This document shows positions 2,837-35,168 of a DNA stretch of 64,000 nucleotides, piece after piece. This stretch comes from Bacillota bacterium. Lineage in GTDB: Bacteria; Bacillota_I; Bacilli_A; RF39; UBA660. Each line of letters starts with the position of its first letter. Positions within the stretch are counted from its first letter, which is position 1. The stretch is from positions 1,055,811 to 1,119,810 of the forward strand of contig SVAI01000001.1 of NCBI GenBank assembly GCA_015059495.1, written 5' to 3'. A program made the position numbers and the translations under genes. A model generated the notes under the pieces. That model saw only the letters and a program-made list of their open reading frames with translations. It made no database searches and was not told where the DNA came from.

Positions 2837-2875
2837 TAGTCGTTTGCTTTATTTTTAATGTAAGGAGAAATACAT

Positions 2876-3931
2876 ATGAACGAAAGATTAGAAAATATTC
2901 AAAAGAAATATGATGAATTAACTGAAGAATTAACTAAACCTGAAGTTTTAGCAGATTTTAATAAATTAAGAGTATTATCTAAAGAACAAAAAGATTTAGA
3001 AGATATAGTAGTTAAATATAAAGAATATAAAGCTTGTGAACAAGAAATAAAGGATGCAAAAGAATTAATGCAAGATCCTGAAATGAGAGAATTTGCTACT
3101 GAAGAATTAGAATCAGCTGAAAATAGACTTCCAGTTTTAGAACATGAATTAGAATTATTACTATTACCTAAAGATCCTAATGATGAAAAAAATATCATCA
3201 TGGAAATAAGAGGAGCTGCTGGTGGTGATGAAGCTAATATCTTTGCTGGAGACTTATTTAGAATGTATTCTAGATATGCTGAAAAACAAGGATGGTCACT
3301 AGAAATACTTCATGAAGTTGAAGGTGCAGCTGGTGGTTATGCTCAAATCGAATGTTTAATCAAAGGTGATAGCGTTTATTCTAAATTAAAATTCGAATCA
3401 GGTTCTCATAGAGTTCAAAGAGTTCCTGAAACTGAATCAGGTGATAGAGTTCATACTTCTACTGCAACAGTTGTAGTAATGCCTGAAGTAGATATTCAAG
3501 ATATTGAAATCAAAGAAAGTGATTTAAAAATAGATGTTTACCATTCATCTGGAGCTGGTGGACAATCAGTAAACACTTCAAACTCAGCCGTTCGTATTAC
3601 ACACGTACCAACAAATACTGTTGTTACATGCCAAATTGAACGTTCACAACTTAAAAATAAAGAAAGAGCTATGCAAATGCTTGCTACTAAACTACATGAT
3701 GAAGCAGAAGCTAAAAGAGAATCTGCAGTAGGTGCTGAAAGAAAGAGCAAAGTTGGAACTGGTGATAGATCTGAAAAGATTAGAACATACAACTATCCAC
3801 AAAACAGAGTTACTGACCACAGAATTAACTTCTCTATTATGGAATTAGATAAAGTTATGGAAGGTAATATAGATCCAATTATCGAAGCATTAATTACTGA
3901 AGATCAAAGATTAAAACTTGAGGGTAAATAA
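2876..3931 (+). CDS. prfA: Peptide chain release factor 1
   Basis: 351 aa; GGQ motif (SGAGGQSVNTSNSAVRITHVPT); conserved RF1 architecture; followed by prmC as in Bacillus. Confidence 0.95.
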   Translation: MNERLENIQKKYDELTEELTKPEVLADFNKLRVLSKEQKDLEDIVVKYKEYKACEQEIKDAKELMQDPEMREFATEELESAENRLPVLEHELELLLLPKDPNDEKNIIMEIRGAAGGDEANIFAGDLFRMYSRYAEKQGWSLEILHEVEGAAGGYAQIECLIKGDSVYSKLKFESGSHRVQRVPETESGDRVHTSTATVVVMPEVDIQDIEIKESDLKIDVYHSSGAGGQSVNTSNSAVRITHVPTNTVVTCQIERSQLKNKERAMQMLATKLHDEAEAKRESAVGAERKSKVGTGDRSEKIRTYNYPQNRVTDHRINFSIMELDKVMEGNIDPIIEALITEDQRLKLEGK

Positions 3932-7123: not shown

Positions 7124-7182
7124 ACTCTAGGTAAATGAATTACTATGTTTAAAAATTAAACATGGCGAAAGGAGAAATTATC

Positions 7183-7401
7183 ATGGCAAAGAAAGATATT
7201 CATCCAACAATGTATGAAACTGAAGTTGAATGTGTATGTGGTGCAAAATTCACTGTTAAATCAACTAAAGAAAAGATTCACTGTGAAGTTTGTTCAGAAT
7301 GTCATCCATTCTACACAGGAGCACAAGGTAGAGTTAAAAAAGCTGGTGCTATTGACAAATTCAACAAAAAGTATGGATTTAATGATAAAGCTGCTAAGTA
7401 A
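7183..7401 (+). CDS. rpmE: 50S ribosomal protein L31 (Cys-containing type A)
   Basis: MAKKDIHP... with CxxC...CxxC; AAAGGAG SD before the ATG at 7183 (ORF-track start 7162 is an upstream in-frame extension). Confidence 0.9.
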   Translation: MAKKDIHPTMYETEVECVCGAKFTVKSTKEKIHCEVCSECHPFYTGAQGRVKKAGAIDKFNKKYGFNDKAAK

Positions 7402-26070: not shown

Positions 26071-26097
26071 AAAAATAATCTACGAGAAATCGTAGAT
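26071..26097 (+). terminator. Rho-independent terminator
   Basis: aatctacgagaaatcgtagatt followed by a T-run. Confidence 0.55.
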
Positions 26098-26161
26098 TTT
26101 TTTGTTTAAAATGACAAATTATTACTCATAATTTTCATAGAATTATATCAAGGAGGAATTT

Positions 26162-27727
26162 ATGAGTGAACTAGATAAAATACTTAAGAAAGCAGAAAAA
26201 GAACATGATACTTTAAAACATCCATATGTAGGTACTGAACATTTATTATTAGCATTACTTTCATATGATAATGAACTAACAGATTATTTAAAAGAATTTA
26301 ATTTAACTTATAATAAATTTAAAAGAAAATTAATAAATGTAATCGGAGAAGGTACAAAAAAGTCTGCTTATGTTCTTTATACACCTATGCTAAGAAAGGT
26401 TTTAAAAACTGCTAAAGATAATACTGATGAAATAACTTCAATAGATTTATTTAATTCTCTGTTAAATTCAAAAGAGGGTATAGCAATACGTTTACTAGAA
26501 GAATTAAATATTGATGTTGATAATATTGAATTTATTAACAACGAAGAAATAAAAATTACAAATAGAGATGAAGAAATTAACGAGATCTTTCAAATACTTA
26601 TGAGAAAGAATAAATGTAACCCATTGTTAATAGGAGATGCTGGAGTAGGTAAAACTGCAATAGTAGAAGAAGTAGAAAGAAGATTAAAGCATAACGAAGT
26701 ACCAACAAGCTTAATGGGATATAAAATAAAAAAAGTTGATCTATCATCAATACTAGCAGGTACTAAATATCGAGGAGATTTTGAAGATAAAATAAATAAA
26801 TTATTAACATCTATTGAAAACAAAAAGACTATTATATTTATAGATGAAATACATACTCTAGTAAATGCAGGTGGAGCAGAAGGAGCTATATCAGCAAGTG
26901 ATATCTTTAAACCATACCTAGCAAGAGGCAAAATAAAGTGCATCGGAGCAACAACCAATAAAGAATATAACGAATACTTTAAAACAGATGAAGCACTAAA
27001 CCGTAGATTTCAACAAGTAATAATTGATGAACCGGATAATAATAAAACTTTATCTATTTTAAAATCACTAAAAAAAGAATATGAAAAGTATCATAAAGTA
27101 TCAATAGATAATAATGTGTTAAATGAAATTATATACATATCATCAAAATATATAACTAATAAAAAGAATCCAGATAAATCAATTGAACTATTAGATTCCG
27201 TATGTACTAATGCAAGATTTAAAGAACAAAATAAAGTAAAAATGGATAATTTATACGATGTATTTAAATCTAGATATAAACTAGATATATCTAATAAACA
27301 TATAAGAAATATATTAGATAAAAAAGAAATCTTGTTAGCAACTAAAGATTTATTAACAACTATTAACTGCTCAAATATAATTTATATTGATGGAAATGAT
27401 TACAAGAATGATGAAGATCTTCTTAAATTATATGGTAACATAAAATCTAAAGAAGATTATATACTTAAAAAGGCATTAGAAAACCCTGTTGGAGTAATAA
27501 CTATAACAAATTATAATTATAATGAAATATTAAAAGAATTTATATTAAAATTAACATCTAATAGAAATGTATTAGATAATTTTGGTAACAATATTAATTT
27601 TAATAACTATATTATTATCATGGAAAAAACATCATCCAATAATTCAATAGGATTTACTACAAATACTAGTCAAAATAGTGTAATATATAAGGAAATAAAG
27701 CAAAAAACACTACTACCTAGTATATAA
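26162..27727 (+). CDS. ClpC/ClpB-like AAA+ protein with Clp-N repeats and D1 domain only (no D2)
   Basis: Clp_N repeats (HPYVGTEHLLLALL; second repeat around PMLRKVLKTAKD); D1 Walker A GDAGVGKTA, Walker B IIFIDEIHTL, sensor GATTNKEY..NRRF; C-terminal about 170 aa lacks any second Walker A. Confidence 0.55.
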   Translation: MSELDKILKKAEKEHDTLKHPYVGTEHLLLALLSYDNELTDYLKEFNLTYNKFKRKLINVIGEGTKKSAYVLYTPMLRKVLKTAKDNTDEITSIDLFNSLLNSKEGIAIRLLEELNIDVDNIEFINNEEIKITNRDEEINEIFQILMRKNKCNPLLIGDAGVGKTAIVEEVERRLKHNEVPTSLMGYKIKKVDLSSILAGTKYRGDFEDKINKLLTSIENKKTIIFIDEIHTLVNAGGAEGAISASDIFKPYLARGKIKCIGATTNKEYNEYFKTDEALNRRFQQVIIDEPDNNKTLSILKSLKKEYEKYHKVSIDNNVLNEIIYISSKYITNKKNPDKSIELLDSVCTNARFKEQNKVKMDNLYDVFKSRYKLDISNKHIRNILDKKEILLATKDLLTTINCSNIIYIDGNDYKNDEDLLKLYGNIKSKEDYILKKALENPVGVITITNYNYNEILKEFILKLTSNRNVLDNFGNNINFNNYIIIMEKTSSNNSIGFTTNTSQNSVIYKEIKQKTLLPSI

Positions 27728-27764
27728 TTGTGGTAAAATAATAACAACTAAAGGAGTAATTATT

Positions 27765-27842
27765 ATGTTAACAAAACGATGTTGCACTTACTTATGTATT
27801 AATAATAAAAATATAAAGGAGTGTAGAAATGAAATTATATAA
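27765..27842 (+). CDS. Putative Cys-rich leader peptide ([25 protein letters not shown]) overlapping cysS start
   Basis: AAAGGAG SD 8 nt upstream; 4 Cys codons in 25 codons including tandem UGU-UGC; stop overlaps cysS codons 4-5. Confidence 0.25.
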   Translation: MLTKRCCTYLCINNKNIKECRNEII

Positions 27843-29220
27843 TACTTTAACAAGAACAATTGAAGATTTTATACCTAATAATAAAGATGATGTAAGAATA
27901 TATACCTGTGGTCCAACAGTATATCATTATGCACATATAGGTAATATCAGAAATTATATTGGACATGATATTTTAGAAAAAACTTTAAGATATTTAGGAT
28001 ATGGTGTAACTAGAGCAATGAATATCACTGATGTAGGTCATCTAACAAGTGATAGTGACTCTGGTGAAGATAAAATGGAAGTTGCTAAAAAAAGAGAACA
28101 TAAGAGTGCGATGGAAATTGCTAAATTCTATACTGATGAATTCTTTAAGGATTTTAAAAAAGTAAATTGTAAGGTTCCTGAAATAGTTTCACCAGCAACA
28201 GATAATATTGAAATGTATATTAAAATAATAACTAAATTATTAGAAGATGGTTATGCATATATATCTGGTGGTAATGTTTATTTTGATGTATCTAAGGTAA
28301 AAGATTATTATCAATTAACAAACCATAAGATTGATGAAATGGTAGTAGGAGCAAGAGAAGGCGTAGAAGAAGATGGTAACAAGAGAAATCAAGCTGACTT
28401 CGCACTATGGTTTACTACATCAAAATTTGAAAATCATGAACTTCAATGGGAATCTCCTTGGGGTAAAGGTTATCCGGGATGGCATATTGAATGTTCTGGT
28501 ATTTCAATTAAATATCTAGGAGAACATTTAGATATCCATGGTGGTGGAGTAGATAATATCTTCCCACATCATACAAATGAAATAGCACAATCCGAATCGT
28601 ACTTAGGACATAAATGGTGCAACTATTGGTTCCACAATGAACACTTATTAGATGAATCTGGTAAGATGTCTAAATCTAATGGTGCTATACTTACTGTATC
28701 AGTACTAGAAGAAAAAGGATATGATCCACTAGCATTTAGATTTATGTGCTTAAATTCACATTACAGAAAACAATTAGTATTCTCATATGATGCCTTAGAA
28801 CAAGCTCAAAACACATTAAATAAATTAAGAACAAGAATTGCTAATATCACAAAAGATGGTGAATTAGACAAAGCTAAATTTGATGAATACAATAATAGAT
28901 TTATTGAAAATATTTCTGATGATGTTAATACTGCTAATGCTTTAACTGTACTATATGATTTATTAAAAGATGATGCAGTTAATAATACAACAAAACTAGA
29001 ATTAGTATCTAATTTTGATAAAGTATTTGATGTTAATTTAATTAAATCTAATGAAGTAGATGAAGAATTATTAAAATACATCAATGAAAAGATTGAAGAA
29101 AGAAAACAAGCAAAAGCAAATAAAGACTTTGAACTAGCAGATAAAGTAAGAAATGAATTACTTGAAAAAGGTATTCAACTTAAAGATACTAGAGAAGGTA
29201 CTATATTTGAAATAATTTAA
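27829..29220 (+). CDS. cysS: Cysteine--tRNA ligase
   Basis: HIGN ([12 protein letters not shown]), KMSKS, zinc-binding Cys positions. Confidence 0.9.
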
Positions 29221-29243
29221 GATAGCATAAGCTATCTTTTTTT
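29221..29243 (+). terminator. Rho-independent terminator after cysS
   Basis: gatagcataagctatc followed by a T-run. Confidence 0.6.
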
Positions 29244-34783: not shown

Positions 34784-34798
34784 TAGGGCATAAATGGG

Positions 34799-35168
34799 GT
34801 AGCTTATTGGTTTCGACAAGCTAGTCTTATGATAGATGTTTGCAAGTAGTCCGATATGACTTAAAACTGTCAAATTAAAATTAAATGACAAAAATGAAAG
34901 CTCTTTCGGAGCATTCACTCCTGTATTTGCCTAATTAAAGGTTGGGAGTTCTCTATCTTAGGTTCACCTATAGCTTAAGAATAGGGATCATATTTATAGG
35001 TTATATATTATAATTGATTAGGTTATAATACGAATCTTACTAATCTTAGTTAAAGAGTAGGTGTGTGATAGCCGGCGCTTTAATGAAATAATAATTATCA
35101 CTAAACTTGTAGATGATGTCTAATCATATAGTTTGGACAGGAGTTCGATTCTCCTCTACTCCACCAAA
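34799..35168 (+). ncRNA. ssrA: Transfer-messenger RNA (tmRNA, SsrA)
   Basis: 5' GGGGTAGCTTATTGGTTTCGACA and 3' GGACAGGAGTTCGATTCTCCTCTACTCCACCA; acceptor stem GGGGTAG/CTACTCC with the G3:U wobble alanine determinant; T-arm GTTCGATTC; in-frame tag reading ...gac aaa aat gaa agc tct ttc gga gca ttc act cct gta ttt gcc TAA (34887-34934) gives (A)DKNESSFGAFTPVFA. Confidence 0.85.

Follow-up and report, generated by a model that had tools for sequence, protein, structure and literature searches.

A short leader peptide with tandem cysteine codons as a probable cysteine sensor upstream of cysS in gut Bacilli

T-box riboswitches are the normal means by which aminoacyl-tRNA synthetase genes are controlled in Firmicutes. 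In the stretch of DNA analyzed here (64,000 nucleotides of contig SVAI01000001.1, assembly GCA_015059495.1, from a Bacillota bacterium; referred to below as the window), the gene for cysteine–tRNA ligase (CysRS), cysS, is separated from the upstream gene by an intergenic leader of 101 nt, where a short upstream open reading frame (uORF) containing several Cys codons runs into the start of cysS. The locus raises the question of whether this uORF senses the supply of cysteine and, if so, at which step of cysS expression it acts. Comparison with related organisms indicates that the leader open reading frame (ORF) is very likely a real, conserved, cysteine-sensing leader peptide. With less certainty, and on the basis of modelled RNA structure, the element as a whole is probably a cysteine-specific leader-peptide attenuator of cysS, acting on translation initiation via sequestration of the cysS Shine-Dalgarno (SD) sequence. 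The features of the locus are as follows (MFE, minimum free energy):

27723-27728: alternative TATAAT box, overlapping the stop of the upstream gene
27731-27739, + strand: candidate extended -10 element TGgTAAAAT, read from the sequence, which would put the transcription start upstream of the uORF SD
27750-27756, + strand: leader-ORF SD, AAAGGAG, followed by an 8-nt spacer and the ATG at 27765
27765-27842, + strand: leader ORF, 25 codons and stop, with MLTKRCC as its conserved part
27774-27785, + strand: putative sensor core AAA CGA UGU UGC (Lys-Arg-Cys-Cys), conserved, its first Cys codon 49 nt before the cysS ATG
27782-27800, + strand: predicted 5' arm (anti-SD) of a hairpin, UUGCACUU, CUU and UGUAUU, in the MFE and centroid folds, beginning within the Cys codons
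27810-27826, + strand: predicted 3' arm, AAUAUA, AAG and GAGUGUAG, in the MFE and centroid folds, holding the entire cysS SD and most of the spacer
27815-27821, + strand: cysS SD, AAAGGAG, 7 nt before the cysS ATG
27829-29220, + strand: cysS, cysteine–tRNA ligase, 463 aa, a match to TIGR00435 and the putatively regulated gene

The cysS product scores 450.6 bits against TIGR00435 (cut-off 340), and the G+C content of the window is about 26%. The preliminary description of this locus had pointed to the AAAGGAG motif 8 nt before an ATG, to the 25-codon ORF opened by this ATG, to four Cys codons including a tandem UGU-UGC at codons 6-7, and to a stop inside codons 4-5 of cysS. All of these are confirmed by the positions of the codons, i.e., UGU at 27780-27782, UGC at 27783-27785, UGU at 27795-27797 and at 27822-27824, and the stop TAA at 27840-27842, 11 nt inside cysS. 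Cysteine accounts for 16% of the leader-ORF codons vs 1.1% (215/19,261) in the long ORFs of the window.

Conservation of the Cys uORF in relatives had been set beforehand as a test of the element. In a GTDB scan with one genome per species, 80 of 587 cysS loci were listed, mostly from metagenome-assembled genomes (MAGs) of uncultured gut and rumen organisms labelled Bacilli or Tenericutes; the name RF39-like used below is inferred from these labels. The comparison set comprised 61 loci (the window counted) in which CysS identity was 63% or higher and the upstream sequence was long enough, a uORF being counted when an SD and an ATG opened a frame of 5-40 codons within 200 nt upstream of cysS, and 300 dinucleotide-preserving shuffles served as the control. 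The uORF recurs: tandem Cys codons in such a frame were found at 6 of the 61 loci vs 0.14 expected (shuffle maximum 2), uORFs with at least two Cys codons at eight (0.98 expected) and uORFs with Arg-Cys at six (0.32 expected). Among all tandem residues, Cys-Cys was the most enriched in this set. The leader peptide begins MLTKRCC in the window and in locus L001; those of other species, read to their stop codons, are MVKRCCIYIT (L017), MKYNYFRCLCHS (L022), MNLYPLRCLSFIRHE (L012), MKKIDPKTNYSTRCQNWNRTIIK (L042, including STRCQ) and MNRLTTNKMCCQDLL... (L010 and L011), and the peptide of L028 ends in HHITNESCCIF.

A scan of metagenomes for CGATGT followed by a 36-60-nt gap and a cysS N-terminus yielded at least 120 matches; of the 120 listed, 23 are cysS loci. 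The other 97 were chance occurrences not adjoining cysS, and the cysS matches L127, L139 and L186 were set aside, their CGATGT lying within the upstream gene. The metagenomes add at least seven species with leader peptides, namely MLNKIIYNRCCEYNY (L086, ending YNRCCEYNY), MEFKRCCKSNY (L099), MLRILVSFLSKRCCFSN (L111 and L130, ending SKRCCFSN), MKNNFKRCC (L183), MKLIKRCCI (L187), MLNIKRCCL (L193) and MILNKRCCTSFIN (L197), as well as the alleles L110, L146 and L194 of the species to which the window belongs. At 10 of 14 related metagenome loci the CGATGT is in frame with an SD and ATG, vs 0.42 by shuffling; these loci had been picked for CGATGT at the right distance, not for a second Cys codon or an in-frame start. 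Tandem Cys or Arg-Cys is present in at least 13 distinct leaders. The exact CysS protein of the window is encoded on 13 public contigs, five of them exceeding 1 Mb, and the leader there matches that of the window exactly; L201 and L202 (JGI samples 3300021318 and 3300021319) are among these. The uORF is not called on any of the public contigs, and gene callers miss cysS uORFs in practice.

The features kept across these leaders are few. A -10 box (TATAAT or TAAAAT) begins 25-32 nt before the uORF ATG in 14 of 14 RF39-like leaders, the SD and ATG ahead of the uORF are conserved, and the conserved core, AAA CGA UGU UGY, encodes Lys-Arg-Cys-Cys. In the unbiased genome set, the first Cys codon is found at -49 to -53 relative to the cysS ATG, and CGATGT at -52 to -55 in six loci. 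The peptides range in length from 9 to 27 aa, and the residues outside the core vary while the Cys codons are retained. Within the species of the window there are long alleles (the window, L110, L146 and the identical L201 and L202) and short ones (L001 and L194, with the peptide MLTKRCCTYFCINNKI). Of the four Cys codons noted originally, the tandem pair is conserved; the third (Cys11) is replaced by Tyr in the same-species allele L110, and the fourth (Cys20) is missing from alleles L001 and L194 and from every other species.

The uORF overlaps cysS in the window, L110 and L146, and in neither L001 nor L194 nor any other species; at the loci without overlap, the uORF stop is located 14-44 nt before the cysS ATG. 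When L001, from a 98%-identical genome, is compared with the window (2872-3022 vs 27700-27850), two compensating 1-nt indels are seen in the leader, one A being gone from an A-run and one T being added before the cysS ATG. These cut the uORF to 16 codons, such that its stop abuts the cysS SD, and the distance from Cys to cysS is still exactly -49. Because the short alleles drop the overlap yet hold the -49 spacing, the overlap is incidental, and the passage of leader ribosomes over the cysS start, as originally proposed, is not a conserved mechanism since the stop overlap is allele-specific. Comparison of the sequences shows conservation of the uORF with its in-frame start, of the tandem Cys codons and the rare CGA codon preceding them, and of the Cys-to-cysS spacing; the leader ORF is, on these grounds, more than chance.

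A uORF that is translated and conserved could also be constitutive, acting through coupling, as a standby site or by stabilization of the mRNA, or it could encode a functional Cys peptide, in either case without any sensing of cysteine. Short Cys-rich peptides can bind metals, and the stop codons of the window (overlapping cysS) and of L001 (abutting the SD) are both compatible with termination-reinitiation. However, the uORFs of other species terminate at the 14-44-nt distance given above, and Lys-Arg-Cys-Cys is all that is kept, while length and other residues vary freely. Furthermore, the element is found specifically before cysS, the enriched residue being the cognate amino acid: a search for AACGATGTTGY across the 64-kb window returned the cysS copy as the sole exact match. 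Among the other leaders of the window no amino-acid-rich uORF comparable to the cysS leader ORF was found. Conservation confined to the core, specificity for cysS and the cognate residue are therefore the signature of regulatory codons, and a constitutive role or a functional peptide is considered unlikely.

As for how the cysteine-sensing peptide would act, the original proposal was that stalling at Cys codons could unmask or alter cysS initiation. This idea is partly supported, in that the uORF recurs with differing flanks and that the Cys region is predicted to pair with the cysS SD; the overlap geometry that formed part of it is not. In the MFE and centroid folds of the window, 27782-27800 pairs with 27810-27826 to form a short, AU-rich hairpin of about -9 kcal/mol. 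The Cys region pairs with the cysS SD or spacer in the MFE folds of most leaders, with differing arm sequences: GAUGUCUU(U) with (G)AGGACAU in L022 and L012, UGUUGCCUUU with AGAGGUAACA in L193, GUUGUU with AACAAU together with a U-run with AAGAAGGAG in L183, CUUCUUUUAUUA with UAAUGAAGGAAG in L197, and CUAUUCUA with UAGAAUAG in L042.

To represent a ribosome, positions P-12 to P+14 were kept unpaired, and the energy cost of an open cysS ribosome-binding site (RBS) was computed over positions -16 to +3. In the window this cost falls from 7.3 kcal/mol in the free state to 2.1 kcal/mol with the first Cys codon in the A site, and in L099, L183, L187, L193 and L197 the drop occurs exactly as the first Cys codon enters the A site. 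Over 13 distinct leaders, the relief by a modelled ribosome on the first Cys codon has a mean of 4.6 and a median of 5.2 kcal/mol, vs 0.8 ± 1.3 kcal/mol (median 0.45, maximum 4.85) in 52 leaderless cysS loci treated identically; the difference has a Mann-Whitney p=1e-4, where p-values overstate independence because the leaders share ancestry. An SD-sequestering hairpin and its relief by a stalled ribosome are thus predicted.

In the proposed mechanism, a promoter just upstream (-10 near 27731-27739), possibly together with read-through from the preceding Clp-like gene (see below), would yield an mRNA in which the leader ORF is the first cistron. In the free mRNA, pairing of 27782-27800 with the cysS SD and spacer (27810-27826) would hinder binding of the 30S subunit. 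With plentiful Cys-tRNA(Cys), ribosomes would move through the leader rapidly, the hairpin would re-form and translation of cysS would be low. When Cys-tRNA(Cys) is scarce, a ribosome would wait with UGU or UGC in the A site and its footprint over the 5' arm. Positioned about 35 nt upstream of the SD, this ribosome would be near enough to melt the stem and too far away to block the 30S subunit; with the hairpin held open, the cysS SD would be freed and more CysRS would be made. With a spacing of about 50 nt, the stalled ribosome would reach to about -37 at its front, immediately short of the stretch that an initiating 30S subunit occupies. The promoter, a response to cysteine and whether cysS expression then rises or falls are only inferred.

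A number of observations weigh against this model, among them the shared ancestry of the leaders and the way in which the metagenome loci were picked. The distribution of the uORF is patchy because L002 (80% CysS identity) and L003 (76%) have no uORF and carry a promoter directly before the cysS SD. These are the nearest different-species genomes among the dereplicated loci listed; metagenome relatives with 74-87% CysS identity carry the uORF. The candidate uORF promoter was not flagged in a two-hexamer promoter scan. Relief is weak or absent in about 5 of the 13 leaders: L017, L022, L086 and L028 display little or none in both folding contexts (L028 in the opposite direction), and L012 yields 0.9 kcal/mol with the full leader and 3.2 kcal/mol in the other folding context. 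The whole-leader fold is not unusually stable compared with shuffles (z=-0.97), and the free-state opening cost of the RBS (median 6.9 kcal/mol in leaders vs a mean of 5.5 in leaderless loci) does not differ significantly (p=0.088). Alignment of 15 leaders with MAFFT followed by RNAalifold gave zero consensus pairs; there is no column-wise consensus because the stems sit in different registers, and consequently no formal covariation. Finally, in the window allele the leader ribosomes also cross the cysS start, with possible occlusion or coupling effects outside the model.

The same leader peptide could instead act on transcription, by a terminator and antiterminator as in trpL or in the uORFC-8-2 motif of Rhodobacterales, or by Rho-dependent polarity. 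In Rhodobacterales, the cysS uORFs known or predicted have an intrinsic terminator at their end (PMC8632094). Among the relatives a terminator is seen only in L010 and L011, where a Cys-Cys uORF, MNRLTTNKMCCQ..., is followed by a 13-bp hairpin and a U-run, and Rho-dependent effects are compatible with the sequence. However, there is no G+C-rich stem with a U-tract between the uORF and cysS in the window, where the SD itself forms the 3' arm and AAAUG, not a U-tract, comes next. The L010 locus is itself uncertain because its terminator persists in constrained folds and a TATAAT box follows the terminator. Control of transcription is accordingly rated as unlikely.

In L010 and L011 (Firmicutes bacterium CAG:321 and a Bacilli MAG from the Hadza gut), the uORF MNRLTTNKMCCQDLLNDRSISLCLTR and the terminator-like hairpin occupy positions -163 to -25, and they may represent a transcription-attenuation flavour of the same idea. 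An antiterminator seen by eye in these two loci (GAUAGGUCU with GGACUUAUC) was rejected, as the terminator persists throughout in constrained MFE folding.

In the unbiased set, CGA is the Arg codon that precedes the first Cys codon (27777-27779 in the window) in all five independent lineages, i.e., the window, L017, L022, L012 and L042. This codon accounts for 8 of 544 Arg codons (1.5%) in the long ORFs of the window and for 6 of 172 (3.5%) in the cysS genes of leader-bearing species, where AGA is dominant. Its presence in all five lineages against a background of 1.5-3.5% therefore speaks for the codon itself being under selection. UGC is over-used as the second Cys codon, being found in 6 of 11 tandem leaders vs a background of about 18%. 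The bias toward CGA and UGC points, at the level of sequence, to selection on codons or nucleotides, not on the peptide alone. In yeast, CGA, which is read by inosine, affects decoding; by analogy, CGA in the P site while the first Cys codon is in the A site would slow A-site decoding, which in turn would make the stall steeply dependent on Cys-tRNA(Cys). In L028 and L010 there is no Arg before Cys-Cys, i.e., the Cys pair is kept without CGA. A bolder and doubtful proposal is that RF39-like gut Bacilli swapped the cysS T-box for a minimal translational attenuator tuned by an inhibitory CGA-Cys pair, and that the K-R(CGA)-C-C module may also head other cysteine-related genes as a ribosome-run regulon.

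The same nucleotide-level conservation, with the rare CGA in every lineage and the over-used TGC at the second Cys codon, would be expected if the conserved AAACGAUGUUGC were an RNA-level signal, e.g., one bound by CysRS or some other protein, or a small element of the riboswitch kind, the open frame being incidental. Yet an in-frame SD and ATG are retained even where indels occur and peptide length differs, either UGU or UGC is found as the second Cys codon, and Cys-Cys is present without CGA in L028 and L010. The motif has no Rfam match and no conserved structure around it, and this alternative is regarded as improbable. That the uORF is a functionless chance ORF in AT-rich intergenic DNA, for which the abundance of small ORFs in the window (87 of at least 20 aa within 8 kb) and the ordinary stability of the fold could be quoted, is highly improbable and effectively refuted by the comparative data, i.e., enrichment far above shuffles and conservation of frame, position and promoter context across many species. 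Autoregulation by CysRS via a tRNA-like operator, as for E. coli thrS, was also considered and rejected; neither a conserved GCA-containing loop nor a tRNA-like fold was found.

Some cysS loci recovered with the CGATGT pattern are more distant, and for those designated L104, L128 and L172 the search selected for Arg-Cys and not for the additional Cys codons. L104 (contig CEPV01091727.1; CysS 32% identical) encodes the leader peptide MYKFLNCCRCCC at -90 to -52 before cysS, with five Cys in 12 residues, and with the modelled ribosome the cost of its SD pairing drops from 9.2 kcal/mol to about 1.3-3 kcal/mol. At the more G+C-rich loci L128 and L172 (38% identity), the peptide reads M..CGGC(S/A)RCPG.., and no such relief is given by the modelled ribosome. 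In L169, L173, L182 and L195 (CysS about 37% identical), a common CGATGTTGA is found about 50-60 nt before cysS with no open frame across it; the sequence could represent a TTGA element of the -35 type, or a coincidence in view of the pattern searched for.

The remaining question is how the attenuator proposed here relates to known systems, in the first place to the T-box. The preliminary description had held the leader to be too short for a T-box, and indeed it spans 101 nt and has no Rfam match. Neither the whole window, at the gathering score, nor 27650-27900, at E≤10, contains a match to the T-box family RF00230, and a search of the leader against Rfam at E≤10 identified no family, the sole match being a meaningless snoRNA at E=5. 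The same search yielded T-boxes at 94-132 bits at cysS loci of Lachnospiraceae, and none of the uORF-bearing loci has one. Because the T-box test failed and Lachnospiraceae relatives carry T-boxes, the element of the window fills the role of a T-box without being one. The logic is that of the T-box leaders of cysS and cysE-cysS in Firmicutes, by which cysS expression rises as charging of tRNA(Cys) falls, but a T-box is a tRNA-binding riboswitch of about 200 nt with a terminator, while sensing in the 101-nt leader is predicted to take place through the ribosome. The T-box loci (L049, L062, L064-L067 and L073, from Lachnospiraceae/Acetatifactor MAGs) have the riboswitch about 70 to 1000 nt upstream of cysS; in the majority of these more distant Clostridia, such a distance points to an operon under T-box control that has another gene ahead of cysS.

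In ermC, cat-86 and cmlA, stalling of a ribosome on a short leader ORF opens a hairpin in which the SD of the following gene is otherwise sequestered, and the two-arm geometry of the window resembles that of cat and cmlA. The stall in those systems is caused by an antibiotic together with the nascent peptide, not by missing charged tRNA.

Closer in principle are the polycysteine leaderless small ORFs (sORFs) of mycobacteria, e.g., Ms5788A (Canestrari et al. 2020, bioRxiv 10.1101/834739), where a Cys tract pairs with the downstream SD region; mutagenesis has shown that ribosomes stalled for Cys-tRNA block this duplex and free the RBS (bioRxiv 10.1101/834739). Both systems have an upstream ORF with consecutive Cys codons and lack a terminator, the pairing and the translational control in the window being predicted. 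In contrast, the sORFs of mycobacteria start without a leader, contain longer runs of Cys codons, form an extended duplex of high stability and control cysteine-metabolism operons in Actinobacteria, whereas the leader ORF of the window is SD-led with a 5' untranslated region and has two conserved Cys residues, Lys-Arg(CGA), a short AU-rich hairpin and, as its target, cysS of low-GC gut Bacilli/'Tenericutes'. The origin is presumably independent because there is no sequence homology. By analogy, the best reading is that the element works like the mycobacterial attenuators and is not a homologous member of that group.

Cys uORFs ahead of cysS itself are described in other phyla, so that the element is not without precedent. 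Among Rhodobacterales, the uORFC-8-2 motif (Brewer et al. 2021, PMC8632094) places a conserved uORF immediately before cysS; the motif contains a tandem pair of Cys codons, ends in an intrinsic terminator and is read as ribosome-mediated attenuation with Cys-tRNA as the signal sensed. In these alpha-proteobacteria the Cys codons are at positions 14-15; the element of the window has no terminator and an unrelated sequence, and no Rfam family matched the leader, uORFC-8-2 included if Rfam holds that motif. In Deinococcus deserti, a 10-aa leader peptide with two Cys at the 5' end of the cysS mRNA has been proposed as an attenuator (de Groot et al. 2014, PMC4007540); this differs from the window in its leaderless start, its proposed action on transcription and its description from one species only. 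The element of the window would serve the same purpose as the cysS uORFs of Rhodobacterales and Deinococcus. In the literature searched, no paper describing a K-R-C-C cysS leader was found. The novelty lies in the lineage, in a minimal design at the level of translation and in the conserved codon pair CGA-UGU with its rare first member, while the principle is that of textbooks and cysS precedents are known.

An uncultured, genome-reduced lineage of gut Firmicutes thus probably controls an aminoacyl-tRNA synthetase by a leader-peptide switch of about 65 nt, which would be among the smallest amino-acid sensors proposed, and which would extend the mycobacterial mechanism, a Cys tract pairing with the SD, to a second phylum and to cysS. 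The natural variants of 9-27 codons constitute a compact set for tests, and the conserved rare CGA before Cys is a hint that codon-pair effects tune bacterial attenuators.

As regards the surroundings of cysS, the upstream gene (26162-27727, + strand) encodes a 521-aa ClpA/B/C-like ATPase with a Clp_N domain and one AAA+ module only, which scores far under the cut-offs for full-length ClpA, ClpB and ClpC. Terminator-like hairpins are found before this gene (26077-26098) and after cysS (29219-29238). A terminator scan of 27727-27829 found none between the Clp-like gene and cysS, so that read-through from the former into the leader is possible. Elsewhere in the window, a tmRNA gene (34796-35166, + strand; tag peptide DKNESSFGAFTPVFA) is located inside a 1.1-kb gap between ORFs, and an L31-Firmicutes ribosomal-protein leader (7143-7174, + strand) is found just before rpmE (7162-7401). 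The window has no Rfam matches besides these two.

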